The notes beneath the pieces were generated by a model that had not been told where the DNA came from, did not search any database, and saw nothing but the letters and a program-made list of their open reading frames with translations. A stretch of DNA of 64,000 nucleotides, taken from positions 1,937 through 65,936 of the forward strand of contig CAZHXX010000007.1 of assembly GCA_964536485.1 (NCBI GenBank), written 5' to 3'. This stretch comes from an uncultured Candidatus Saccharibacteria bacterium (lineage in GTDB: Bacteria; Patescibacteriota; Saccharimonadia; Saccharimonadales; SZUA-47). This document shows, one piece after another, positions 25,736 through 49,622 of the stretch; position 1 is the first letter of the stretch, and each line of letters opens with the position of its first letter. The position numbers and the translations under genes are program-made.

Positions 25736-26548
25736 ATGGATGATTATTTGAAAGAACTTGAGATTGCGAAGCGGCTGGCGAAGGACGCGGGCGTAATTAT
25801 GAACAAATATTTCAGTAGTGGTGCAGACGGTGCACAGATAAAGAATGATAAAACCATCGTTACAAAGGCTGATACTGAAATAAACACGCATGTTATTGCG
25901 GTGTTGGCGACCGAGACACCAAGCTATAGCGTTTGGGGCGAAGAAGAGAAATCAATCAAGCAGGATGTGCCATACACATGGGTGTGTGACCCGGTTGATG
26001 GCACGATGCCGTTTGCTAAGGGGCTACCTATATCTACCTTCTCGGTTGCCTTAGTAGATTCGGAAGGAGTGAGCGTGCTTGGTGTGGTGTATGACCCATT
26101 CACGGACAAGCTGTATGAAGCAGTCCGGGGTAGTGGCGCTTTTATGAATGGCATGCCAATTCGTGTCTCAGATAATGATACGCTCGATGGCGCTTACATT
26201 GACGAAGAACTGTGGTTTAACAATGAGGAGCAGGTAACTTTTGATACCCCCAAAGATGCGCTAAATAAATTGGGTGCGAAAGTAACGACTCAGTGTTCTG
26301 CTGTAATCATGGGATGCATGGTTGCGAGCGGAGCATACGAAGCGATGTTATTTGGACAGGGTAAACCTGAGGATATTGCTGCGCTATCTGTCATAGTGAC
26401 CGAGGCGGGCGGAAAGGTGACGGACCTGTTTGGAAATGAACAAAGGTATGACACGAATATTAGAGGAGCTGTAGTTTCCAACGACTACTTGCACGAAAAG
26501 CTTGTAGAGCTTACGTCAAAAATGAACTACACCAGCAAATACCTCTAA
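25736..26548 (+). CDS. inositol monophosphatase family protein (SuhB-like)
   Basis: WVCDPVDGT metal-binding motif and EE...KSI region, 270 aa. The last 8 codons come from junction repeat A. Confidence 0.8.
   Translation: MDDYLKELEIAKRLAKDAGVIMNKYFSSGADGAQIKNDKTIVTKADTEINTHVIAVLATETPSYSVWGEEEKSIKQDVPYTWVCDPVDGTMPFAKGLPISTFSVALVDSEGVSVLGVVYDPFTDKLYEAVRGSGAFMNGMPIRVSDNDTLDGAYIDEELWFNNEEQVTFDTPKDALNKLGAKVTTQCSAVIMGCMVASGAYEAMLFGQGKPEDIAALSVIVTEAGGKVTDLFGNEQRYDTNIRGAVVSNDYLHEKLVELTSKMNYTSKYL
26517..26544 (+). repeat. cassette-junction direct repeat, copy A
   Basis: AAAATGAACTACACCAGCAAATACCT matches the consensus AAAATGAACNNCACCAGCAAAWAYCT. Confidence 0.7.
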
Positions 26549-26602
26549 ACCCGCATTCTTCTCATGCTTGCTAGTAATAGCTTATGATGGTATTTTCAAG
26601 AG

Positions 26603-27088
26603 ATGAAACACTTAGAGGCATTTTTGGCAATGGAAGGCATGCTAGAAGAAAGGCCTGTTGAAGCTGTGAGACTTGCAACAAGTGCGTTATTGGCAATAAG
26701 TTTTATGCGTAGTGAAACCCCGTTTAAAACAAAAAAAGGTTTGCCAGTGTATGAGCATAAAATACCACTTGAACCTTATAGTGCTAATTTAAGAGTAAAA
26801 CCACATCCTAGTGACTTTTTAAGTCTTGAAAAACCAGAAGAGAGAGTCTTGGCCGCGGATTTACCTGCGTCTCTTACTTATTTTTATAGAAGCTATCTAG
26901 GCGCTTCATTCTCTTTTGAAAGGGACACGGGGATTGTCTCCGTAGAATTTGGCAAGGGGAGTTATTTTAGTTCAACAGGTTCTGCATCTGCGACAGAGCA
27001 AGGAATATGCTCAATTAGGAATATTTGGCAAGACTTACACGCTCCAACAATTATGTATGTACAGCAAGTAGCGAACCAACTCGGTTAG
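26603..27088 (+). CDS. hypothetical protein
   Basis: 161-aa ORF. Confidence 0.5.
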   Translation: MKHLEAFLAMEGMLEERPVEAVRLATSALLAISFMRSETPFKTKKGLPVYEHKIPLEPYSANLRVKPHPSDFLSLEKPEERVLAADLPASLTYFYRSYLGASFSFERDTGIVSVEFGKGSYFSSTGSASATEQGICSIRNIWQDLHAPTIMYVQQVANQLG

Positions 27089-27549
27089 TCTTCTTTTGCT
27101 TTGGCTTCTAGTTCTGCTTCCAGTATCGCTTTTGCTTCTTCAAAAGTGGGGGTTGTACCGACAGTTTTGAAGACTCCGTTGCAGGCTATGCATCTCTTGA
27201 AGCTTGCACAGATGACATCAAACTCTTCTTCTGGGACGCCAAGTTTCATTAATTTAGCAAAGAGTGCGTCTGGGTCAAAGCGGTCTTGCCGATGGTATTC
27301 AGGGCGATCTGTTAGCTCTGCGTCACGCTTAAGACCATTGAGCTCTATGGCAGAATGCGAAAACCCATCTACCAAGTGAAATTGTTGGTCGTTAGCTATA
27401 CGAGGGAGGAAAGGATTTATGTGTGCCGGCATTTCGCAACCATCGCACCCTTCAAGACCGAACTCAGTCCTGCTTGAAAAGATTACTAAAAACCTGTTCT
27501 TTACATCTGGTTCTAAGCGACGTAAATATTCAGTCTCTGGGTCTACCAT
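27085..27549 (-). CDS. hypothetical protein
   Basis: 154-aa ORF with a convergent 4-nt overlap with 26603-27088. Confidence 0.5.
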   Translation of the reverse strand: MVDPETEYLRRLEPDVKNRFLVIFSSRTEFGLEGCDGCEMPAHINPFLPRIANDQQFHLVDGFSHSAIELNGLKRDAELTDRPEYHRQDRFDPDALFAKLMKLGVPEEEFDVICASFKRCIACNGVFKTVGTTPTFEEAKAILEAELEAKAKED

Positions 27550-27605
27550 ACTGTTGGCTATTTAACACTCGATTCATCCCCAAAGCAACCTTAAGCAAGT
27601 TTTCG

Positions 27606-28283
27606 CTACCCAATCATGACTTGCCAGCGTACGGCGTGTCTTATAGTCGGGACTTTGGCTGGTTGCGCGTAGTGGGGCAGAGAGGGTGGCATGATGACAA
27701 GTTTATTAACCGGAATTTCTTCTTTAGATAATTGGTCCGCAACAGCTTCTTTTAGGTGAGTTCTTGGTTCGCCCTGGAAATCCTGCGGAGTTGTTGGTCC
27801 TTGAAGTGTCATCGTTGGCAGAGAGTCACACGCAAAGCCAATAGCTTTTAGCGCTGTCCCATCTTCTCCATTCAAAAATGTTGCTTCAACGTTTGTGCCG
27901 CCCGGGGCTGTGCCGTCTAAGTGAGGAAGCCAAAAAGTACCCACATCGTGTGTGCCTAGTTTGCTATAAAAATGGTCAAAATATATTCGAGCTTGTTCAT
28001 AATTATCCTGTCCAAATATCTCTTCTATCGTTTTACAAAACAAAGCATGAAGAGGTGCGTATGCACTGTTTGAGCCAGCAAAAACAGCTTCCTTACCAGA
28101 AGCTTTAATCGTTCTTTCTCTATCGTCAACAAACGATGTGGCAAGGCCTTGTAAATCGACACTATCAGCAACAACAATGTCTTTTCGGGGCAACGCTAAA
28201 GCCTCAGCGGAGTAAGGGTTGTCTAAAAACTCAGTGAAAATATTATGCGTTGGAGCGGATAAGATATTAGCCATAAAACCCAA
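27606..28283 (-). CDS. hypothetical protein (HxD motif WLPHLDG)
   Basis: 225-aa ORF. The start is probably the ATG at 28274 (MANILS). Confidence 0.5.
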   Translation of the reverse strand: MGFMANILSAPTHNIFTEFLDNPYSAEALALPRKDIVVADSVDLQGLATSFVDDRERTIKASGKEAVFAGSNSAYAPLHALFCKTIEEIFGQDNYEQARIYFDHFYSKLGTHDVGTFWLPHLDGTAPGGTNVEATFLNGEDGTALKAIGFACDSLPTMTLQGPTTPQDFQGEPRTHLKEAVADQLSKEEIPVNKLVIMPPSLPHYAQPAKVPTIRHAVRWQVMIG

Positions 28284-28329
28284 GGATAATAGCTAGACCC
28301 CTAGAAAGCAACCATAAGCAAAACCAGAG

Positions 28330-28364
28330 CTCAGCACCAAAATGAACCCCACCAGCAAAAACCT
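28330..28364 (+). repeat. cassette-junction direct repeat, copy B
   Basis: CTCAGCACCAAAATGAACCCCACCAGCAAAAACCT. Confidence 0.7.
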
Positions 28365-28395
28365 GTTTAAGTCAGGCCATCTCTATATTCTCAAG

Positions 28396-28424
28396 TTGAC
28401 AAAAATAATTTATTGAAGTATAGT
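28396..28424 (+). promoter_or_regulatory. sigma70-type promoter of 28433-28816 (near-leaderless)
   Basis: TTGACA (28396-28401), 17-nt spacer, TATAGT (28419-28424). The ATG lies only 8 nt downstream of the -10. Confidence 0.5.
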
Positions 28425-28432
28425 AATGATTC

Positions 28433-28816
28433 ATGAGTGATACAAATACTTGTTTTGGATGTGAATTCGAGCCAAAAATTGCAGAAATTGGCATGTTTGC
28501 AAGAGTGACACGAGAAATCGTAGAGTTGAAGGTTCCTGGTGTTATCGATGCCACATTGGATGTTGTTATAGAATCAGACAAGGTGGAAGCAAACCCAGCG
28601 GTTGACCAGAAGGTTTCTGGCATAATAGACCTCACCGCACAGATGAGTAGTGTCGCAAATTCGGTTGATACTGAAATTTTAGATGAAATTGATGCTATTT
28701 TGTGTGCAAGAACTTGCACTGAAGAGACCAAAGCGGAGTCGTTATCGGGTTGCCCAAAGCTCGACTTGCTAATGCCCAAAATGTGGGACCTCGCAACCAA
28801 AATCCAACTCCCTTAA
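28433..28816 (+). CDS. hypothetical acidic protein
   Basis: 127-aa ORF that is the only gene between junction repeats B and C. Confidence 0.5.
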   Translation: MSDTNTCFGCEFEPKIAEIGMFARVTREIVELKVPGVIDATLDVVIESDKVEANPAVDQKVSGIIDLTAQMSSVANSVDTEILDEIDAILCARTCTEETKAESLSGCPKLDLLMPKMWDLATKIQLP

Positions 28817-28847
28817 TTAATAATTCGCCAAGGTAATGTAGTAGATA

Positions 28848-28882
28848 CTCACCTCCAAAATGAACCACACCAGCAAATATCT
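28848..28882 (+). repeat. cassette-junction direct repeat, copy C
   Basis: CTCACCTCCAAAATGAACCACACCAGCAAATATCT. Confidence 0.7.
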
Positions 28883-28984
28883 TTAACTCTGCCAAAACTA
28901 AATAACAAAGAATTACAGATGAAAAGGTAAAAAATTATGAGCGTATTGTCTTGACTACGAATAAAATAAGCTAGAATTAATGCG

Positions 28985-29830
28985 ATGACCGATAACTCAA
29001 AAGATAACATGCAACTTGCAATTAATGAAGCTAAGAAGGCTCCTGAAGGTAGTCCCAGGGTTGGCACCGTTATTGTAAAAAACGGAAGGGTTTTAGCTAA
29101 GGCATACAGAGGTAAATACGGAGAGCACCTACACGCGGAGCACTGTGCATTAATAGAGGCAAAAAACGCAGGAACAAACATAAGAGGTGCTACTGTATAC
29201 ACTACATTAGAGCCTTGTAACGAAGTTAGGAGTGCATCTAAGGTTCCGTGTGCTGACCAGCTTATAGAAGCAGGAGTAGCTGAAGTTTATATAGGTAGTT
29301 ATGATCGAAATCCTGTTGTTTATCGTCAAGGCTGGAGAAGACTAAGAGATGCCGGCTTGAAGCTTTACGATTTTGATGAACAGCACCGTCAGCAGGTTAA
29401 ATATTTAAACAGTCGCTCGGATGGTAATTTTCTTTACAGTGTTGGGAAAAGTGGAGGCGCAAAGTTTGACTACATGCAAAATGGAGGAAAATTTGAGGTT
29501 TTTTATGATGAGTCTAAAGCTATTGTTTTTAAAACTAGATGGAGCCAAAAAGGCCCACGTTCTATTTATGCATATGGTGGACAGCCTGGGATCGTTTCTC
29601 TAGCCAAATACGCGGTAAATTTTGAGGAGATTGATGATCCAGACGCTTACGACTATGAAGGTAGTTCAGTATCCGGTTATGAAGGAGACATAGTCATTTT
29701 CAGGAATGCAGAAGGGCATGCTCTAGTTAAGATTTGTGAAGTTCAAGTCGGAGCACCCTGGGACAATAAAAATACTTCGCTGAAGATTAAGTATCAACTA
29801 AGGCTTAAAGAGTCTAGTAAACAAAGCTAA
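28985..29830 (+). CDS. CMP/dCMP-type (RibD-like) zinc deaminase fused to an uncharacterised C-terminal domain
   Basis: HAEHCAL...TLEPC...PCADQLIEAGV zinc-binding signature in the first ~150 aa. The remaining ~130 aa have no recognisable motif. Confidence 0.65.
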   Translation: MTDNSKDNMQLAINEAKKAPEGSPRVGTVIVKNGRVLAKAYRGKYGEHLHAEHCALIEAKNAGTNIRGATVYTTLEPCNEVRSASKVPCADQLIEAGVAEVYIGSYDRNPVVYRQGWRRLRDAGLKLYDFDEQHRQQVKYLNSRSDGNFLYSVGKSGGAKFDYMQNGGKFEVFYDESKAIVFKTRWSQKGPRSIYAYGGQPGIVSLAKYAVNFEEIDDPDAYDYEGSSVSGYEGDIVIFRNAEGHALVKICEVQVGAPWDNKNTSLKIKYQLRLKESSKQS

Positions 29831-29860
29831 AAACTGTTAAAGATTTGCTAAGATGAAGTT

Positions 29861-30409
29861 ATGAATGCAGTATTTCTAGACCGAGATGGAACGATTAACA
29901 TTGGTATACCGAGAATCTCGAGAGTTGATAGTCCTGAAAAGGTTGAATTACTCCCGACGGTTATTGAAGCGCTTAGTCTTTTAGCGACTTTGGACTATAA
30001 AGTGTTTTTAGTGACGAATCAGGCCGGCATCGCAGAAGGTAAGATAACAGTAGAAGAATTTGAAAAGATAAACGAGCGAACCCTTGAGCTCATTAGACCA
30101 AGTGGTATAGATATAACTGAGACATACTATTGCCCGCACGGTGAACAAGACGCTTGTGAGTGTAAAAAGCCAAAACCTAAGATGCTCTTTGATGCTGCTC
30201 AAAAGTATGACTTAGACTTAGAAAATTCATTTATGATAGGAGATAGAATTTCAGACATAGACACAGGAATTAATGCTGGGACGAAGACAATCCTAGTGTT
30301 GTCTGGTGAAATAGTTGAGGCTCCGCAGGCAACTTATACAGCAAGTAATTTGCTTAAAGCAATTCAGTTCATAGCTGTAAGCAAAAACTATAACTCACCA
30401 AAAAAATGA
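29861..30409 (+). CDS. HAD-IIIA phosphatase, GmhB/histidinol-phosphatase-like
   Basis: VFLDRDGTIN motif I, VTNQAG, zinc-loop CPHGEQDACECKKPKP, GDRISD. Confidence 0.7.
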   Translation: MNAVFLDRDGTINIGIPRISRVDSPEKVELLPTVIEALSLLATLDYKVFLVTNQAGIAEGKITVEEFEKINERTLELIRPSGIDITETYYCPHGEQDACECKKPKPKMLFDAAQKYDLDLENSFMIGDRISDIDTGINAGTKTILVLSGEIVEAPQATYTASNLLKAIQFIAVSKNYNSPKK

Positions 30410-30428
30410 ACTCCACCAGCAAATACCT
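30394..30428 (+). repeat. cassette-junction direct repeat, copy D
   Basis: CTCACCAAAAAAATGAACTCCACCAGCAAATACCT. It overlaps the stop codon of 29861-30409. Confidence 0.7.
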
Positions 30429-30471
30429 CAAAAATTCAAAAGATTTAAAAACATCGTGCTACAACCCTGAA

Positions 30472-31791
30472 TCAGAGAAGTTTATTCTTAGCATTTCTCC
30501 TAGTCTTATTTAGTTGTCTTGCAATAATATTAGATTCAGTTTTTTTGTAAGCACCTCGCATATAATCAGCTTTTTTCTGACCTCTCAAATGCCTTGAAAT
30601 CGTAGAAGATCGAAATGATATTGAAGCTCCGTTAAAATGAAAGCCTAAGTACTGAGGGTCTTTTCGTTTGCTCGAAACTTTATTATCAATACTTTTAGTT
30701 ATGTTCTCAAGATCCGTTTCACCTTCTATTTTACGAAAGACTTCTGTCTTTTTTAAGCTTAGTCTAAGCCCATGAGACGCCAGGGCTTTAGATATATTTA
30801 GATATACATTCTTAGATTGTCCTATTGGGCATATTATTAAAATATCGTCACTGTAACGCTGGTAAAAACCACCGAGACTTCCTACTACTACCTCTTTAGT
30901 AGCTTTATCAAACTCTGATAAATATAAATTTGCTAGTAGCCCACTGATTGGGCTTCCTTGTGGTATGCCGAACCCTGACTTATTAGTCTTGACCTCTTTT
31001 TTTAAATACTTATTATAATCACTAAGACTACAAAATTTTCTGGATTCGTCTATTTTTGTCAGGAATTTCCTTTTGTTCTTTTTGAGTATTTTAAGAGCTT
31101 CGCTATATTCAAGGTATCTATAGCGTGTAATATTTTTAAATATAACTTCATGGTCTGGATTGGCTGAAAATCCACCTTCCAATATTGAGTTCCATCTTTC
31201 GTGGAGTATTGAGTGATTCAGGTTATCGAAAAAACCTTTAACATCCAACATTATGCATTCGTATTCTGTCCTATTTCGCATTTCATCAAATGCTTCTTTC
31301 GCAAAATCAACGTTATTCTTTCCGTCAACTGATCTGTATGCAATAACATTATTTTCAAGTGATTCTTGCAATAAAAACTTCTCGTAATCTTTCTGTAATA
31401 AATACGAGTAGAAGGAAAGTATCGTCGCATCCCAATGGGAAGCATACATAATAAGCCTAGTTTTAATATGTGGAAATTTTTTCTGGCTACGCTCTCCCTT
31501 TAAAGATGAGAATTCATAGTCGTAAGGAGGCTGAACAAACCTTCTCAGTCGTTTTCCATTTTTTATAAAAGGCAGAAAACCATGACTCTCAAGTCTACCT
31601 TCTTGGCAGATAATTTCTTTTAGTTTTGCTGCTTGAGCTACATCGTTACCAATACGTGGATAGTGCAGTTTGTTATCTATATGGGGGTAGTTACGCTCGC
31701 CAATGAATTTTTTGCCAAATTTCTTATTTCCAAGCGTGGCTTTATGCTTTTGATAAACTAGCCATTCATTAAATTGAATCGTATGTCTCAT
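30472..31791 (-). CDS. stand-alone reverse transcriptase (non-group-II, non-DGR; Abi/UG/DRT-like)
   Basis: RT motifs KTRLIMYASHWD (1-2), IMLDVKGFFDNLNH (A), FGIPQGSPISGLLANLYL (B'), YQRYSDDILIICP (C), LSLKKTEVF (D/6), YLGFHFNG (7). No extra enzymatic domain. The gene is strongly AT-rich. Confidence 0.85.
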   Translation of the reverse strand: MRHTIQFNEWLVYQKHKATLGNKKFGKKFIGERNYPHIDNKLHYPRIGNDVAQAAKLKEIICQEGRLESHGFLPFIKNGKRLRRFVQPPYDYEFSSLKGERSQKKFPHIKTRLIMYASHWDATILSFYSYLLQKDYEKFLLQESLENNVIAYRSVDGKNNVDFAKEAFDEMRNRTEYECIMLDVKGFFDNLNHSILHERWNSILEGGFSANPDHEVIFKNITRYRYLEYSEALKILKKNKRKFLTKIDESRKFCSLSDYNKYLKKEVKTNKSGFGIPQGSPISGLLANLYLSEFDKATKEVVVGSLGGFYQRYSDDILIICPIGQSKNVYLNISKALASHGLRLSLKKTEVFRKIEGETDLENITKSIDNKVSSKRKDPQYLGFHFNGASISFRSSTISRHLRGQKKADYMRGAYKKTESNIIARQLNKTRRNAKNKLL

Positions 31792-32257
31792 ACAGACTTG
31801 AAACTCGACTCCTCGGTGTGGCGCAACACTTTTACATTGCTGTGAGGAGTCGATACATGCAGTAGAGCACTTGCGAAGTGGTGCAGCATAGAGCGGGGTA
31901 ATGGAAAGGTATTTTCTCCAAAGAAATTACGCCTAAGTCAATTCAATCGCGGAGATATACAATAATATCATGGGATATATTGCCATAATTACTATCGCAA
32001 ACTTCATCGTTGGTAAAGGTGAACTACTGTTGAAGTTCAAGAGTAGTTTATCTTTACGCTTGACCGCCTCTGTTAGCTTTACAAGCTTTCTCGGGCTTGA
32101 CCTATGTCCTGTCTCAGCTACTATAATGTGGATCCCGCTTCTCCGTCCACACGTACTATAAAGCTATAGTAGTGGGTTGTTGTTACCCTCAACAGTATCT
32201 TTATTATAGCAAATTTAGAATAAAAAGCTATAGCTTACTAGAATGTATCAAGTCTGT
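31792..32257 (-). ncRNA. candidate RT-associated non-coding RNA / long structured 5' leader
   Basis: No ORF on the RT strand. Bounded by a 10-nt inverted repeat at 31792-31801 and 32248-32257. Contains a 9-bp stem (31806-31814 with 31844-31852) and an 11-bp hairpin at 32022-32048. An extended -10 TGCTATAAT reads on the minus strand at 32211-32203. Confidence 0.35.
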
Positions 32258-32290
32258 CAAACTGCTAGTGCTTAATTGTTGGGTTAAATT

Positions 32291-32536
32291 TCAGCATGTA
32301 GCCTCCAGCATAAAGCAAGAAAACCGATGCCTATTACTCAAAATGCAGTGAATCATTTCCGAGGACATGTCAAAAGTCTTCTTATTCAGTAACTACTTTT
32401 GACCGCTTGCCGTCCCGCAGGAACACTACATTTTGAGTAATTGGCAGTCGCAGTTCTTCTTGCCAGCTGGCGGGGCGTTTTGGGTACTTTTGGACCTGTA
32501 GCTAAAAGTACCGCTGGGTATGGGCAGGCAAAGCCC
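32291..32536 (-). repeat. structured repeat locus R3: single unit, same strand as the RT
   Basis: Homologous to 13338-13572. It has the head hairpin GTACTTTT...AAAAGTAC, the GTCAAAAGT/ACTTTTGAC apical stem and the TCATTTCCGAGGAC motif. Confidence 0.8.
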
Positions 32537-32538
32537 AT

Positions 32539-33186
32539 TTATTTAATCCTATACTCCCTCGAAACTCCCCACCCGGAAGCCGCAACGTCCCCACGATGGG
32601 TCAAAAGTTGCATATAATGCTGAACCCGGCGTGGCGGAAGATTGAGAGCGCGAGCTATAGTGCGGTTACTCGCAGGGCTGTGAGAAGAGATAAAAGCCAA
32701 AATATCTGAAACATTTTTTTGTGCAACTGCCTGCCGAGCTTCGACGCCCTGGCGACTTAACGACGCCTGGTTTTTCTTGGCATAGAGCGAGGCGGCAGCT
32801 TTGAGTTGCGCGTCGGAAAGCTGAGAAATGTCTATCTCTGCTGCGGGTGGTGGCGGGGTGACTGGTGGTGCCGGAGCAGGGGCAGGTGGCTCCGGTGCGG
32901 GCGCCTTTATCACAGGTGCTGGTGCTGGTTCGGGAACGGTAATGGGTTCTGGACTAGGTTCGGGAATTATGACTGGTTCTGGGACAACGATTGGTTCTGG
33001 CTGGTGAGTTGGTTCAGGAGCAGGTTCTGCAGGAACAGATTCTACAGGTGCTGGCGCAGGGGACGGTATCTCTGCAGGCGGTGCAACGGGTGGTTCTGTT
33101 GCAGGAGTTTCTACTGGTGCAACTTCAACACTTGGCTCTAGTGGCGTGTCCGCTGGTGGTTCTGGAACGGGTGTTTGGTCGTCCAT
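32539..33186 (-). CDS. proline-rich protein with C-terminal winged-helix DNA-binding domain
   Basis: The N-terminal ~110 aa are P/E/A/V-rich. C-terminus is SNRTIARALNLPPRRVQHYMQLLTHRGDV. Confidence 0.55.
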   Translation of the reverse strand: MDDQTPVPEPPADTPLEPSVEVAPVETPATEPPVAPPAEIPSPAPAPVESVPAEPAPEPTHQPEPIVVPEPVIIPEPSPEPITVPEPAPAPVIKAPAPEPPAPAPAPPVTPPPPAAEIDISQLSDAQLKAAASLYAKKNQASLSRQGVEARQAVAQKNVSDILAFISSHSPASNRTIARALNLPPRRVQHYMQLLTHRGDVAASGWGVSREYRIK

Positions 33187-33195
33187 GCTGAAACT

Positions 33196-33645
33196 CTATA
33201 GTTTGATTGGTGTTTTGGGGAAGCCCTTTTTCAGTGCAAGCTCGATAGCAGTTTGAAGCTGAGGGGTACGAAAAGGGAGGTGCTTAAAACTACCTTTGTC
33301 TATCCAGAGTGGTGTGTGTACGTTGCCTTGCATAGAGTTGCTGGCAAGCTTTGCTTCTTCGCTGTCGTCTGAAAGTGCGATGTCGTTGCCGTGTGGACCG
33401 ACGGTGCAGAGGAAAATATATTGTTCTGCATAGGGTTCTGGATGAAGCTCGACGAAGACAAGTTGGGTGCTGGTGACATCGAGACCTGTTTCTTCTTTAA
33501 CTTCACGGATGACGCCTTGTTCTAAGGTTTCGCCTTCTTTTACGCCACCACCAACCAATGTGTAGTACTGGTTGCCGGCTTTAAGGCGACGCATAATAAG
33601 GATACGGTTGTTTTCTATGACTATGGCTCTTGCTGATTTGTTCAT
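33196..33645 (-). CDS. NUDIX hydrolase
   Basis: Nudix box GGGVKEGETLEQGVIREVKEETGL. Confidence 0.85.
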   Translation of the reverse strand: MNKSARAIVIENNRILIMRRLKAGNQYYTLVGGGVKEGETLEQGVIREVKEETGLDVTSTQLVFVELHPEPYAEQYIFLCTVGPHGNDIALSDDSEEAKLASNSMQGNVHTPLWIDKGSFKHLPFRTPQLQTAIELALKKGFPKTPIKL

Positions 33646-33688
33646 ATGCTGAAGTATAGCGAACGGAGCCTGTGTTTTAAAGGAAGGG

Positions 33689-34081
33689 TTAGTTTTTGAG
33701 CAAGATTGATATCTGTAATGTGGTAGCTATGCAGACCCATACGAGATAGGGGATAAAGGCTATGGCGATAAATTTCTGGTATGGCCAGATAGCTATCATT
33801 GACCAGATGATGGTCGCGAGAACCAGAAGGATGTCAACGACGGCGAGAAAATTGTTACGGAGGCCAAATTGAATCGGTGTAAAGATGAGGTTGAAGCCAA
33901 GATTGAGCCAAAATGGTAGGGCGGTTTTGGTTGATATCTTGTCTTGTGCAAGTAGGACGATGACGTAAATGTTAACCGCAAAAATAATCGGGTAAATGAC
34001 TGACCAGACTTGGCCAAAGACACTTTCATGTGGTGCCCACGAAGGTTTTTTGAGTGCTCTGTACCATCCTTGACTGTTCAT
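33689..34081 (-). CDS. TspO/MBR family tryptophan-rich membrane protein
   Basis: WYRALKKPSWAPHESVFGQVWSVIYPII motif and 4-5 TM helices. Confidence 0.7.
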   Translation of the reverse strand: MNSQGWYRALKKPSWAPHESVFGQVWSVIYPIIFAVNIYVIVLLAQDKISTKTALPFWLNLGFNLIFTPIQFGLRNNFLAVVDILLVLATIIWSMIAIWPYQKFIAIAFIPYLVWVCIATTLQISILLKN

Positions 34082-34157
34082 AGTAGGGGTAAGTATGGGC
34101 TTATGGAGAGGGCTTGTAAATAAGATTTATTGCAGAATATTCTGTACTTTTTTTGGT

Positions 34158-34385
34158 GGGCTATGCCTGCCCACACCCAGCCTTACTTTTCTCTCCAGCT
34201 AGAAAAGTAAGCAAAAGAGCCGCAGCCTACACAAAAAAGCGATGAAAATGAATCATAAATGAAACGTGCCTGCGGAACGGCAAGCGGTCAAAAGTAGTTA
34301 TTGAATAGGAAGACTTTTGACTGGTCCTCGGCAATGACTCGTTCATTTTTGTATTCCTTTTCTCGGTTTTTGCGTTTGAGGCTGG
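34158..34385 (+). repeat. structured repeat locus R4: single unit
   Basis: Head GGGCTATGCCTGCCCACACCCAGCC, hairpin TTACTTTTC...GAAAAGTAA, GCCTGCGGAACGGCAAGCGGTC, apical GTCAAAAGT/ACTTTTGAC, GTCCTCGGCAATGA. Confidence 0.8.
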
Positions 34386-34498
34386 TTTGACTGCATGGTC
34401 CAATGTGTAGAGAGTTAAATAGGATTTTATATTTTCGTTCAGAATTTGTTGACAGCTTGGTACATAACTTTATATAGTTAACTAGTAAGTTAACTATT

Positions 34499-34849
34499 AT
34501 GGAACACGATTCACCACAACTCGATATGCTCTTTGAGGCTCTGGCCCACAAGCATCGTCGTGAAATAATCTATACACTTGGATTGCAACCAAGGTCCATA
34601 AGCCAGCTAGCTATACAGCAGGGGTTATCATTGCCTGCGATTTATAAGCACATTTCTGCGCTAGAAGAGGCTGGGCTAATAATGCGCAAGAAGAGTGGTC
34701 GAACCAACTTCTTAGCATTGAATAAAAAGAACCTTATGGTTTTGCAGAAATGGTTAATGCAGTACAACGCACATTGGGGCAACCAGGAAGAGTCGCTTGA
34801 AAACTATGTAAAAGCTATAGAGCAAGCAGAGAAACAAGTAATTAAATAA
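34499..34849 (+). CDS. ArsR/SmtB-family HTH transcriptional regulator
   Basis: LFEALAHKHRREIIYTL...SISQLA...SLPAIYKHISALEEAGLI. Confidence 0.75.
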   Translation: MEHDSPQLDMLFEALAHKHRREIIYTLGLQPRSISQLAIQQGLSLPAIYKHISALEEAGLIMRKKSGRTNFLALNKKNLMVLQKWLMQYNAHWGNQEESLENYVKAIEQAEKQVIK

Positions 34850-34860
34850 AGGAGAATAAG

Positions 34861-35205
34861 ATGAAAAAATTCGTGTTTATATACTTTGGTGGTACAGAAT
34901 CTGTTAAAACAGCCGAGAATGTACAAGCGTATTCAATGCAGCAGATAATGGCAGACTGGGGCAAATGGTTTGAAGAACTTGGGCCTGCGCTAGTTGACGG
35001 GGGGAGCCCTTTCAACAGTGATGGGCAGTCGGTGACACTCAATGGTGCGGCACCGATTATGCCCGCTGATATGCCAGCTACAGGGTACACGATTGTGAAC
35101 GCTGAGAGCATGGAAGCTGCCGTAGAGCTTGCAAAGGGTTGCCCGAGCCATAAACACATGGATGGTAAGGCGGTAGTGCAAGTGTACGAAGCTATGCCAA
35201 TGTAG
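34861..35205 (+). CDS. YCII/DGPF-like small protein
   Basis: MKKFVFIYFGG...GYTIVNAESMEAAVELAKGCP...VQVYE pattern typical of YCII-related domains. Confidence 0.45.
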   Translation: MKKFVFIYFGGTESVKTAENVQAYSMQQIMADWGKWFEELGPALVDGGSPFNSDGQSVTLNGAAPIMPADMPATGYTIVNAESMEAAVELAKGCPSHKHMDGKAVVQVYEAMPM

Positions 35206-35280
35206 CATTGTATCTTTTGTAAGGGACTTAAAAAGACGCCTCGAGTGTAGGCGTCTTTTGGTATAATGATTTAGATTTCG

Positions 35281-35430
35281 CCACCTTAGCTCAGTAGTGA
35301 GAACTGCCAGTGGCAGTTTGCAAGGCCGGAACACCTGCGTGTGATTCCACACCAGATGTGAGGCGGGGCCGAGGCTGATTTGAAATTTATTTCAAGTAAG
35401 ACCGTGGCAGAGCATTTACAATATAGATAT
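35281..35430 (+). other. tRNA-Thr-like 5' fragment plus structured spacer immediately upstream of tRNA-Thr
   Basis: GCCACCTTAGCTCAGTAGTGAGA resembles a tRNA acceptor/D-arm but no cloverleaf can be completed. It is followed by the hairpin AACTGCC-AGT-GGCAGTT, which has the same GCCAGTGGC core as 11139-11155. Confidence 0.4.
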
Positions 35431-35506
35431 GCCGAAGTAGCTCAGTTGGTAGAGCATTTCATTCGTAACGAAAAGGTCGTGGGTTCAAATCCCATCTTCG
35501 GCTCCA
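35431..35506 (+). tRNA. tRNA-Thr (anticodon CGT)
   Basis: Acceptor GCCGAAG/CTTCGGC, D-arm GCTC-AGTTGGTA-GAGC, anticodon loop TTCGTAA, T-arm GTGGG-TTCAAAT-CCCAT, encoded CCA. Confidence 0.85.
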
Positions 35507-35507
35507 T

Positions 35508-35582
35508 GCGGGTATCGTATAACGGCTATTATGTATCCTTCCCAAGGATAAGACGAGAGTTCGACTCTCTCTACCCGCACCA
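35508..35582 (+). tRNA. tRNA-Gly (anticodon CCC)
   Basis: Acceptor GCGGGTA/TACCCGC, anticodon stem-loop TATCC-TTCCCAA-GGATA, T-arm GAGAG-TTCGACT-CTCTC, encoded CCA. Lies 1 nt after tRNA-Thr. Confidence 0.8.
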
Positions 35583-35729
35583 ACGATAAGTGATGATAGA
35601 CAATGGACGTTCGATTATCGAAGAGTTGCCAGATTCGAACATCAGCCTTCTAGCATCAACAATCAAACCTGATGTTCTGAGCCTTTATTACTCTTTGAAA
35701 CTACGCTATACTAGACACTAGAATCTTCT

Positions 35730-36086
35730 ATGTTTAAAATCCCTAAAAACTATTTTCATGACCGTCACGTTCTGAGCTTGGTTGGCGCAGATCTTGCGCT
35801 GTTTCTGCTTGCAACACTTAATGTACTGCTGAACGTAAAACCTGACGAAAACCCGACGAGCATTGTGGCCTACCGTGACACGACAAAGATTGGACAAATA
35901 AGTGGCGCAACAACAGAGCTCTACCAGTTTGCCGTCTTTGCCCTGATTGTGACCGTAGCATCTATTGTGCTAAGCATGAAATTGTATACACACCGTCGAC
36001 ATCTTTCTGTAGGGATATTGGGGATGTGTTCGCTTCTTTTAATACTCGACATTATTATTTTTAACGCGCTTACGAAAACTTTGTAG
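35730..36086 (+). CDS. hypothetical membrane protein
   Basis: 118 aa with 3-4 TM helices. Precedes the GT2 gene. Confidence 0.55.
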   Translation: MFKIPKNYFHDRHVLSLVGADLALFLLATLNVLLNVKPDENPTSIVAYRDTTKIGQISGATTELYQFAVFALIVTVASIVLSMKLYTHRRHLSVGILGMCSLLLILDIIIFNALTKTL

Positions 36087-36095
36087 GCTCAGAAC

Positions 36096-37712
36096 ATGAA
36101 AAAGCCTTTTCCTTACGAAATACCGTTCAACGAGGAGAAAGGTGCGCAGTACCGTTTTTTTGAAATTTTGCCTGGTTTTTTGACGTGGTCAGCGTTGATT
36201 TTGCCGTTTGCGTTGGCGTTTTGGAACGTGGGAGTAACGGCAGTAATTATGATTGCCTACTTGATGCTATGGTTTGTGAAGGCGGTTGCACTGAACTTGC
36301 GTGCCGTGCAAGGCTGGCGGTTGTTTCAAGAACACCTTGGGATTGACTGGATGGCACTTTTTGCCGATGTAAAAAAGCACGACGATACGAAAAAGTGGCC
36401 CCAGTGGCACTTAAATAACCTGAACCGAATCGAGAAGTGTCCAAACGGTATTAAACCTGATGAGATAACGCATGCGGTAATAGTGGCTACCTGGAATGAG
36501 TCGCGCGAAACACTGAAACCAACGCTTGATACCGTAGCCGAAAGTGTTGGTGACCCAAAGAAGATGATCGTGTTGCTCGCCTATGAAGCGCGCGGTGGTG
36601 AGGTGGTAGAGAAGCAAGCCGAAACGCTAATGAAAGAGTATGAAGGTGTGTTTATGGTGTCTAAAGCGGTAAAGCACATTGACGCGCCTGGCGAAGTGAT
36701 TGGTAAGGGGCCGAACATTACCTATGCGGGTCGCGAACTTGAACGTATTGTGAAAAAGAAGGGGATAGACCCACTCCAAGTATTGGTGACAACTCTGGAT
36801 GCCGATAACCGTCCACACAAGAGTTATTTTGCTTGTTTGTCTTATGTGTATAGCGTGTGCCATGACCCACTGTTTCTTTCGTTTCAACCTATACCGATGT
36901 TTACGAATAATATTTGGGATGCACCGGCGCCCATGCGCGTGATTGCAACGGGGAATAGTTATTGGATGCTCATTCAGGGACTTCGACAGCATATGTTGCG
37001 CAACTTTTCGGCGCATGCACAGCCACTGGCTTCTTTAATAGAGACAGATTTTTGGAGTAGACGAACTATCGTGGAGGATGGGCATCAGTTCTGGCGAAGT
37101 TATTTTGCTTTTGATGGTAAGCATGAAGTGATCCCTATTTTCTTGCCGATTTATCAGGATGCGGTGCTGGCAAAAGGCTACCGCCGAACGCTGAAGGCCC
37201 AGTTTATACAAATACGACGTTGGGCATGGGGCGCGACAGACATTGCCTATGTTGCCAAGTATGGGTTCTTTAAGAAAAATAAAATCTCGCGTACTGACGT
37301 GTGGTTTAAGTTTTTGCGCCTGCTCGAGGGGCATTTTAGCTGGGCAACTGCTCCGCTTATTTTGGCTTTTGGCGCACTGATACCATGGGTATTTCACCAA
37401 ACAGACTTTATTGCTAACCAGTTGCCACAAGTGGCAAGCCGGATTCAGACGGTTGCAATGCTTGGGATTTTGGTCACCTTATATTTGAGCTTTAAGATTT
37501 TGCCACCGAAGCCGTCGCGCTATAAGAAGCACCGCACGGTGTTTATGGTGTTGCAATGGGGACTGTTACCACTGACTACCATCTGCTATAGCGCTTTTGC
37601 AGCGATTGTTTCGCAGACACGGCTGATGTTTGGCTGGTACTTGGGTAAGTTCGATGTGACGGAGAAGGCAGTGGTGACTGATTCTGGGACTGTTACTTCG
37701 CATGATGAATAA
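36096..37712 (+). CDS. membrane-bound family-2 glycosyltransferase (processive, cellulose-synthase-like)
   Basis: VIVATWNES, TTLDADN (DxD) and QFIQIRRWAWG (QxxRW) motifs, with multiple N- and C-terminal TM helices. Confidence 0.7.
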   Translation: MKKPFPYEIPFNEEKGAQYRFFEILPGFLTWSALILPFALAFWNVGVTAVIMIAYLMLWFVKAVALNLRAVQGWRLFQEHLGIDWMALFADVKKHDDTKKWPQWHLNNLNRIEKCPNGIKPDEITHAVIVATWNESRETLKPTLDTVAESVGDPKKMIVLLAYEARGGEVVEKQAETLMKEYEGVFMVSKAVKHIDAPGEVIGKGPNITYAGRELERIVKKKGIDPLQVLVTTLDADNRPHKSYFACLSYVYSVCHDPLFLSFQPIPMFTNNIWDAPAPMRVIATGNSYWMLIQGLRQHMLRNFSAHAQPLASLIETDFWSRRTIVEDGHQFWRSYFAFDGKHEVIPIFLPIYQDAVLAKGYRRTLKAQFIQIRRWAWGATDIAYVAKYGFFKKNKISRTDVWFKFLRLLEGHFSWATAPLILAFGALIPWVFHQTDFIANQLPQVASRIQTVAMLGILVTLYLSFKILPPKPSRYKKHRTVFMVLQWGLLPLTTICYSAFAAIVSQTRLMFGWYLGKFDVTEKAVVTDSGTVTSHDE

Positions 37713-49191: not shown

Positions 49192-49236
49192 GCTCTCTAG
49201 TAACTCGGGGCAACACCAGGTATACTAGAACATGCT

Positions 49237-49616
49237 AGAGGAGCAGTGATAATCGCCGTTGTCTTTGCAAAAAGGCAAGGGAGGAAAGTCCGGGCAGTAT
49301 CAAAGACTGACAGTTGTTAACGGCAACCAAAGGTGACTTTAGGGAAAGTGCCACAGAAACGAAACATCTACTTAGTAATAAGTAGAAAAAGGTGAAACGA
49401 GTGGGGTAAGAGCCCACAGTCTTGTGAGGTGACTCATGAGAGAGGTAAACCCTGTCTACTGCAAGGAGCGCTGGCCACGCTGGGTAAACCAGCACGTATC
49501 TTTGCGAGGTCATGCGCGCTACGAAAACCGCTTGATTCCATGAGCAATTATGGAACTAGATAGATGATTATCACCCATCTTTTGATGGGGACAGAACCCG
49601 GCTTATTCGCTCGTCT
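49237..49616 (+). ncRNA. rnpB: RNase P RNA (bacterial type A)
   Basis: GGAGGAAAGTCCGGGC (CR-I), AGGGAAAGTGCCACAGAAA, GTAAGAGCCCAC, ACAGAACCCGGCTTA (CR-V). P1 pairs AGAGGAGC with GCTCGTCT. Confidence 0.9.
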
Positions 49617-49622
49617 GGCACT

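Follow-up and report, generated by a model that had tools for sequence, protein, structure and literature searches.

A divergent DRT2 reverse transcriptase and its structured upstream RNA in a Saccharibacteria-type lineage: a probable source of a neo-like gene

Introduction

What does a reverse transcriptase (RT) make when its gene stands alone behind several hundred nucleotides (nt) of non-coding DNA? A locus of this kind lies in a 64,000-nt stretch of contig CAZHXX010000007.1, which is referred to here as the window. An RT gene on the minus strand (30472-31791) is preceded there by a region that the original prediction, made from the DNA letters, took for a hairpin-rich non-coding RNA (ncRNA) of a candidate DRT2-like defence system.

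The DRT2 system of Klebsiella pneumoniae, for which a covalently attached DNA primer has been found, provides the precedent. Its RT repeatedly copies a 120-nt template of the ncRNA, and the complementary DNA (cDNA) is made double-stranded; the −35 and −10 boxes, whose genomic order is wrong for a promoter, are brought to a distance of 17 bp where two repeats meet; the resulting neo transcript is antisense to the ncRNA and contains a stop-less open reading frame (ORF), the unit length being divisible by three (PMC11100668, PMC12039810). Published units are 111-129 nt long and the Neo protein is hydrophobic (PMC12039810).

Here we report a comparative analysis of the RT, its upstream RNA and the strand antisense to that RNA. 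With a probability of about 0.8 the locus is a two-part DRT2 (UG2) anti-phage system, which consists of the RT and a structured ncRNA of approximately 405 nt and makes a neo-like gene.

Results

The RT is a divergent DRT2 enzyme

30472-31791, minus strand: DRT2-type reverse transcriptase gene, 439 aa, identified by its ORF, motifs, profile hidden Markov models (HMMs) and fold.

The 439-aa ORF holds the RT motifs LDVKGFF, PQGSPISGLLANLYL, YSDD, LKKTE and YLGF, and Pfam recognises RVT_1 as the sole domain, without a fused effector domain, which confirms the protein as it was originally described. The YSDD active site is intact and its residues (Y313, S314, D315 and D316) are invariant in 21 homologues. 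A protein search returned 519 RT homologues, the closest 14 of which are metagenomic and 46-59% identical. The best RT matches in the species-representative genome set are metagenome-assembled genomes (MAGs) of Candidatus Saccharibacteria, and we therefore call the host lineage Saccharibacteria-type.

By HMM, sequence and fold the protein is a divergent DRT2/UG2 enzyme. The PADLOC models for Drt2 match with E = 1.1e-102 and 2.8e-75, and the next family, UG17, follows at 2.7e-24. Among PDB chains the solved K. pneumoniae DRT2 (9c0i) is found by sequence with E = 4.2e-48, the next RT with 7e-5. An AlphaFold model built with the 21 homologues reached a predicted local distance difference test (pLDDT) score of 85, and its best PDB match in Foldseek is 9c0i_A (E = 1e-27, template modelling (TM) scores 0.73/0.75, 28% identity). 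The runner-up in fold is DRT9 with E = 1.6e-10 and a TM score of 0.45. Identity to the Drt2 protein annotated by PGAP in Photobacterium is 30% (BLASTP). RT-family HMMs, sequence and the fold of the predicted structure thus uphold the proposed single-gene, DRT2-like defence RT.

Could the RT instead belong to a retron, a group II intron, a diversity-generating retroelement (DGR) or a telomerase-like DRT10/UG17 system? We regard this as extremely unlikely. An inverted repeat of 10-13 nt brackets the upstream region, as might be expected of a retron, and there are HMM matches to other classes; these matches are far under their cut-offs (73.8 bits against 300 for the group II intron RT model TIGR04416, 43 bits against 235 for the retron St85 model) or far weaker than those to Drt2 (UG17, E = 2.7e-24 against 1e-102). 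Rfam found no intron domains in the window. The group II intron, which had been named at the outset as an outcome that would refute the prediction, was rejected together with the other classes. For DRT10/UG17, a SLATT domain is absent from the neighbours. For a DGR, the search of 26000-37000 found no repeat pair of 30 nt or more that involves the RT gene or the ncRNA. What it did find are copies of an intergenic motif, one of them abutting the RT gene at its 3′ end, and an inverted repeat that lies upstream of the module. The 10-nt inverted repeat of the original prediction is present as the core of a 13-nt repeat (31792-31804 / 32245-32257, 92%). Its retron-like a1/a2 reading did not hold: the repeat is absent from the 11 homologous loci introduced below, and its distal arm is upstream of the −10 box of the ncRNA promoter and thus outside the RNA.

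The RT gene and its own upstream region form a self-contained module, since no partner gene was found when the gene neighbours were compared at eight homologous loci. The genes flanking the RT differ at every homologous locus compared, and in the window they are housekeeping-like. The RT gene is AT-richer than its surroundings, as had been noticed (GC content 0.33-0.36 compared with 0.39-0.55). That there is no accessory ORF was likewise seen correctly, but the ncRNA itself is the predicted source of the effector.

The upstream region is a conserved, covarying and pseudoknotted ncRNA

31792-32196, minus strand: cis-encoded ncRNA, approximately 405 nt; the 5′ end is placed from the −10 box and the 3′ end is drawn to the RT start codon.
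32113-32195, minus strand: 5′ handle domain, from the column-to-coordinate map and pair counts.
31792-31947, minus strand: 3′ scaffold, with helices mapped from the 12-locus alignment.
32203-32211, minus strand: extended −10 element TGCTATAAT of the ncRNA/RT transcript, its promoter role being suggested by sequence.
32227-32275, minus strand: conserved DNA block upstream of the ncRNA promoter, present in 10 of 12 loci despite differing flanking genes.

We compared the window with the 11 homologous loci that have enough upstream DNA (RTs 46-59% identical); counts out of 12 refer to this set. The approximately 400 nt from the TGnTATAAT box to the ATG of the RT can be aligned in all 12 loci with a mean column identity of 66%. 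The ncRNA strand of the window folds better than its shuffles (z = −2.6; 0 of 100 shuffles equal), and RNAalifold predicts 74 pairs for the 12 loci, 38 of them with compensatory changes. The structure that we then wrote and tested comprises 92 pairs in 17 helices, with two pseudoknots (PK1 and PK2). Standard pairs occupy 92.5% of its cells, compared with 38-42% if the partners are slid by 1-3 columns, and compensatory changes on both sides occur at 45 pairs, compared with 8-15 in the slid controls. None of 500 shuffles matched the observed pairing values. The region is therefore a conserved, covarying and pseudoknotted ncRNA, which bears out the structured RNA originally proposed. In a search of Rfam no family matched it.

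In the 5′ handle, helix P1 joins CUGUU (32195-32191) to GACAG (32113-32109); it is paired to 100% and contains one compensatory pair, in L167. Within P1 lie a small hairpin (32188-32186 / 32176-32174), helix H2 (32172-32165 with 32125-32118, both-side changes at six of the eight pairs) and hairpin H3 (32151-32146 with 32132-32127). The loop of H3 (32140-32134) pairs with 31897-31891 to form PK1, where five of seven pairs show both-side changes. The 3′ scaffold contributes the right arm, UUGACU (31941-31936), of a basal stem with GGUCAA (the complement of 32097-32102), which is paired to 87.9%. It further contains PK2 (31933-31928 with 31825-31820, compensatory change at three of six pairs), a hairpin (31880-31876 / 31872-31868) and a terminal hairpin (31853-31841 / 31814-31805) with an inner stem (31829-31827 / 31818-31816) and compensatory changes at six of ten pairs. 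Two hairpins had already been located from the letters of the window, and both were recovered in slightly extended form. The stem at 31806-31814 / 31844-31852 is a perfect stem of 10 nt (31805-31814 / 31844-31853, 100%) that is kept with compensatory changes across homologues; the hairpin at 32022-32048 is conserved as 32013-32034 / 32036-32057, also with compensatory changes. A covariance model of the 3′ scaffold gave marginal matches just upstream of the RTs of L002 and L003 and nothing convincing outside the 12 clade loci; the K. pneumoniae-like loci L169 and L170 were not found with it.

The extended −10 element, which had been noted at 32211-32203 and which we read as TGCTATAAT, is conserved: the −10 box (TAnAAT/TAnACT) is aligned in 12 of 12 loci, and the TGn in 10. 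The ncRNA and the RT are probably transcribed together from this one promoter. The conserved block further upstream also belongs to the module. It contains a near-invariant TTGACA (32260-32255) and, at 32236-32227, AAGCTATAGC, which is GCAAAGCAGTAGC-like in homologues. The TTGACA is 46-48 nt away from the −10 box and thus too distant to be its −35 box, and the partner 17 nt from it, (T/C)AAAGC, is a poor −10 box. The block could possibly be a second weak promoter or the site of a regulator.

The antisense strand carries a split promoter and an open repeat unit

31951-32112, plus strand (the sense of cDNA and neo): predicted cDNA repeat unit, 162 nt or 54 codons, with boundaries accurate to about ±3 nt.
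32097-32102, plus strand: neo −35 box TTGACC, invariant in 12 of 12 loci.
31958-31963, plus strand: neo −10 box TACAAT; TAnnnT at this place in 12 of 12 loci.
31970-31972, plus strand: predicted neo start ATG, invariant and exactly 6 nt past the −10 box in 12 of 12 loci.

If the unit is joined head to tail, the concatemer junction, CTTGACCTATGTCCTGT followed by GGAGATATACAAT (also read as CTTGACCTATGTCCTGT followed by GGAGATATACAATAATATCATG, or in a shorter form as ...GACCTATGTCCTGT followed by GGAGATATACAAT...), separates TTGACC from the TACAAT downstream of it by 17 nt. Before joining, the place of a −35 box ahead of TACAAT is taken in the genome by AAGTCA, with only three of six matches. 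Since the two boxes reach the 17-nt spacing only across a unit junction, the promoter is absent from the genome.

The template is the ncRNA stretch complementary to the unit. Calculated as the distance from the −10 to the −35 box plus the 17-nt spacer, the unit measures 162 nt at nine loci, 159 nt at two and 156 nt at the remaining one; all three lengths are multiples of three. Template length is thus 0 modulo 3 in 12 of 12 loci, and the lengths of the 5′ handle (66-100 nt) and the 3′ scaffold (145-171 nt) span all residues. Concatemers are free of stop codons in the frame of the ATG alone, again in 12 of 12 loci; the other cDNA-sense frames contain 6-21 stops per three units. For the window unit, dinucleotide shuffling gives a probability of 0.0185 that a given frame has no stop. 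In the window this plus-strand frame is open from 31937 to 32158 and includes a 63-aa ORF (31970-32161). The original prediction had remarked that the antisense frame would matter if the cDNA were the coding product; it is the predicted neo frame, and it is conserved in all 12 loci. The predicted 54-aa repeats are hydrophobic, with grand average of hydropathy (GRAVY) values of +0.28 to +0.99. The gap of 6 nt between −10 box and ATG leaves no room for a ribosome-binding site, and the first neo transcript is therefore predicted to be leaderless. The same layout is present in L090, L091, L092, L093 and L095.

As a separate observation, loci of a sister clade (L083-L085, L088 and L089) have the split promoter and a stop-free unit of 162 nt with no ATG 6 nt past the −10 box, so they must start neo elsewhere. 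In the window only, a TATAAT (32121-32126, plus strand) lies 18 nt after TTGACC and resembles a contiguous antisense promoter directed into the 5′ handle; it is not found in the homologues.

A de novo scan for TAnnnT, TTGAC, a 17-nt junction spacer and a stop-free concatemer yielded the homologous solution in 23 of 27 loci, compared with 4.7% of 5400 shuffles. The successes include remoter clades, whose RTs are 33-38% identical to that of the window, with units of 162, 171 and 174 nt. In the positive control, the PGAP-annotated Photobacterium Drt2 locus (L169), TATAAT and TTGACA with a 17-nt spacer define a unit of 111 nt, in agreement with a length published for the K. pneumoniae clade.

Other delimitations of the template were rejected. 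Units that use the second TTGACC (32060-32065; 93, 117 and 120 nt) or another −10 box (144 nt) are stop-free and absent from the homologues. A template between the 5′ CUGUU and GACAG would include the stop codon at 32159-32161, and its length ignores multiples of three. The direct repeat originally reported, GCTTGACC at 32058 and 32095, is present and does not delimit a unit. Of the two GGTCAAG copies, the first is invariant in homologues and the second GGTCAAGC copy is particular to the window; the conserved GGTCAAGC copy is the complement of the neo −35 box. As template-jump homology, the GGTCAAGC repeat (spacing 37 nt) was dismissed because its spacing is not a multiple of three and its second copy is window-specific, and the TACTATAA repeat (35 nt) because its spacing is not a multiple of three either.

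It could be argued that the 63-aa ORF is simply a small gene, for example for a membrane toxin, that is expressed from the chromosome opposite the RT leader. The peptide is hydrophobic, its ATG follows a −10 box, some loci have nTGTCA (four of six matches) at the −35 position of the genome, and gene callers annotate antisense ORFs of 67-79 aa at L161 (600-833), L164 (87-326), L165 (307-599) and L166 (704-943). However, the stop codon and the C-terminal tail are unconserved (ORFs of 62-121 aa), indels past the donor site are not multiples of three, and the conservation of the frame stops at the predicted donor site. The frame is moreover open upstream of the ATG in all loci, and the good −35 box is downstream, within the ORF, from where it attains the 17-nt spacing only after concatenation. 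An ordinary gene is therefore very unlikely, and the annotated hypothetical proteins are probably mis-annotations, the genomic shadow of the predicted neo frame.

Predicted donor and acceptor sites of the template jump

32110-32112, minus strand: predicted donor ACA in the motif GAGACAGG, paired in helix P1.
31948-31950, minus strand: predicted acceptor GCG (the counterpart of ACA-2), in a single-stranded linker with the conserved motif YCGCAA.

The predicted donor is located 10 nt 5′ of the −35 complement. Ten of the 12 loci have ACA, L081 has GCA and L167 has GCG. In the Photobacterium locus L169, too, a GACAG immediately precedes the −35 complement on its 5′ side. The predicted acceptor, which always lies one unit length from the donor, is GCA in nine loci, ACA in L165, GUG in L167 and GCG in the window. 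Both sites thus have the form purine-C-purine (purine-U-purine for the L167 acceptor), so that in every locus the 3′ end of the cDNA (TGT in the window, by G-C and G·T pairs) can form three Watson-Crick or G·T/G·U wobble pairs with the acceptor. Donor and acceptor have changed together in L081 (GCA/GCA) and in L167 (GCG/GUG). Helix P1, in which the donor is paired with the 5′ end of the RNA, may mark the template boundary and may help to free the cDNA end.

Coding or non-coding product

If the RT copies this template, the product might still be non-coding, that is, a tandem or single-stranded cDNA made by a DRT2-family RT and its ncRNA, with the antisense frame a by-product of RNA and promoter constraints. 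Several points weigh against a neo-like gene, and some of them favour such a product directly. Tang et al. found Neo hard to annotate in divergent DRT2 clades and raised alternative mechanisms (PMC11100668). The 3′ scaffold is not recognisably shared with K. pneumoniae-like loci. The exact microhomology between donor and acceptor is weak (1 nt in the window and 2-3 nt in homologues); at least 3 nt of it, sought in the 12 loci, occur only in L081 and L165. The jump works only if G·T wobble is allowed, and the GCG of the window is the poorest acceptor of the 12. The basal stem and the −35 columns are invariant and thus beyond the reach of covariation. The second TTGACC of the window permits alternative solutions of 93-144 nt, although none is conserved.

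The codon signal is weak as well. In the neo frame, 36% of the codon differences by a single base are synonymous, compared with 24% and 20% in the shifted frames, and the excess of substitutions at third positions is marginal (permutation p = 0.07). Codon-position periodicity was consequently set aside as proof of coding. RNA and promoter constraints can account for much of the conservation of the peptide; a weak codon signal also fits a sequence that is additionally constrained as RNA and as promoter. Finally, the RT scores 299.9 bits with the NCBIfam Drt2 model NF041746, which is under the equivalog cut-off of 390, and automated annotation would therefore not name it Drt2; this cut-off is an annotation threshold and no biological definition.

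A non-coding product nevertheless gives no reason why the length of the template, and of the template only, changes in multiples of three while the flanking domains vary freely. Nor does it account for the one frame that stays stop-free, in all 12 loci as well as in other clades, or for the invariant ATG exactly 6 nt after the −10 box. We thus consider a non-coding product unlikely and prefer the neo-like gene.

Genomic surroundings

35431-35582 and 49236-49621: the adjacent tRNA-Thr(CGU) and tRNA-Gly(CCC) genes, and the class A RNase P RNA.

The window carries a class A RNase P RNA and five tRNAs, which shows that it is chromosomal. Two arms of approximately 200 nt (32339-32537 and 34157-34351), which are 80-83% complementary, enclose three genes (32539-34081) for a Pro/Ala-rich protein, a NUDIX protein and a TspO protein. 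The left arm (32339-32537), immediately upstream of the DRT2 module, folds with −59 kcal/mol (z = −6.2) into a long hairpin, after which comes a U-rich run. It probably acts as a terminator or insulator, or else represents a repeated palindromic element. The intergenic motif AAAATGAACnCCACCAGCAAATACCT has four plus-strand copies (26500-26569, 28320-28364, 28838-28907 and 30384-30453), one of which adjoins the 3′ end of the RT gene, and some copies are readable as a mini-ORF, MN(Y/H)TSKYL. Two genes from the RT, at 28985-29830 (plus strand), a 281-aa protein is encoded that carries at its N-terminus a cytidine/deoxycytidylate deaminase domain; MafB19-like and AID/APOBEC-like matches are weaker, and the approximately 150 C-terminal residues match no family.

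In L167 (1586-2023), the most divergent member of the clade, the promoter of the module begins 73 nt past a transfer-messenger RNA (tmRNA) gene. Genomic islands classically integrate at such genes, whose product rescues ribosomes stalled on stop-less mRNAs.

Discussion

The DRT2-family RT, the covarying RNA, the split promoter, the units in multiples of three and the stop-free frame described above suggest a pathway, which we complete by analogy from cDNA production to toxicity. By homology with K. pneumoniae DRT2, the RT would bind its own RNA at the 5′ handle and at the pseudoknotted 3′ scaffold and would copy the 162-nt template, from RNA position 32112 down to 31951, repeatedly by rolling-circle copying. 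At the donor ACA, at the foot of P1, the TGT end of the cDNA would shift to the acceptor 3′ of the template, where copying would restart; these jumps, if the exact junction is as predicted, would give head-to-tail repeats. After synthesis of the second strand, every junction would set TTGACC 17 nt before TACAAT. Phage would presumably be the trigger of the system. The junction promoter would start transcription at the ATG 6 nt further on, and the leaderless mRNA would be translated into an open-ended, hydrophobic protein of 54-residue repeats (Neo-like) that would arrest the infected cell.

DRT2 is among the most unusual defence mechanisms, as its gene exists only after reverse transcription, and it has been worked out so far in one enterobacterial clade. 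At the level of sequence, the same neo logic is kept here in a distant Saccharibacteria-type lineage, whose RNA scaffold is another one and whose neo start is probably leaderless. The search rules used (TTGAC box, TAnnnT box, 17-nt junction spacer, stop-free concatemer) can be transferred to unannotated RTs, and the compact module of 1.8 kb is a candidate for studying how template jumping tolerates imperfect homology between donor and acceptor. A search of the available literature found nothing on DRT2 in Saccharibacteria or Patescibacteria.

Among known systems, retrons also combine an RT with an adjacent template ncRNA and a defence role. Unlike retrons, the present locus has no conserved a1/a2, no retron HMM match above the cut-off and no effector gene, and its ncRNA is upstream and far larger. 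DRT9 (UG28) carries out ncRNA-templated poly-dA synthesis (PMC12483538). It is likewise a stand-alone RT with an upstream ncRNA and gives the second-best fold match, but its TM score is only 0.45, no sign of a homopolymer template is seen here, and DRT9 has nothing equivalent to the split promoter or the stop-free frame. DRT10/UG17, the second-best PADLOC family, is also a class 2 UG RT with an ncRNA template that is copied repeatedly. Its match is weaker by approximately 78 orders of magnitude, a SLATT gene is not present at our locus, and the predicted repeat is a coding one of 162 nt rather than a short telomere-like one.

The closest relative is the K. pneumoniae DRT2 (9c0i). Both systems have a single RT gene without effector and a pseudoknotted ncRNA directly upstream on the same strand, with the template between a 5′ handle and a 3′ scaffold. 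In both, the antisense −35 and −10 boxes are misordered and come to lie 17 nt apart across the junction, the unit is divisible by three and has one stop-free frame that encodes a hydrophobic repeat peptide, and the donor ACA stands in a GACAG context. The differences are considerable. The RT is only about 28-30% identical to the Drt2 references (Photobacterium Drt2 and 9c0i), the ncRNA has approximately 405 nt instead of 280, and the unit 156-162 nt (171-174 in sister clades) instead of 111-129. The ATG is 6 nt past the −10 box, whereas K. pneumoniae has a ribosome-binding site and a start 13 nt downstream. The acceptor is GCA or GCG here and ACA there, where donor and acceptor form an ACA/ACA pair. 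The UGU strand at the 5′ end of the RNA pairs with the donor, whereas the UGU of SL2 in K. pneumoniae pairs with the acceptor ACA-2. The scaffold is larger, and the covariance model of the clade misses K. pneumoniae-like loci; the promoter is preceded by an additional conserved block of DNA, and the host is Saccharibacteria-type.

The chances seem about even that these differences define a Saccharibacteria-type DRT2 sub-lineage in which neo synthesis is differently built, with a unit of 156-174 nt, a leaderless mRNA, purine-C-purine wobble at the jump, a CUGUU that pairs with the donor and not the acceptor, and an upstream block that is possibly regulatory. If true, neo synthesis would extend to divergent clades in which Neo has defied annotation, and to episymbionts with reduced genomes. 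Altogether, the locus represents no new kind of system; it is a member of the DRT2 family and most probably works like the DRT2 of K. pneumoniae.

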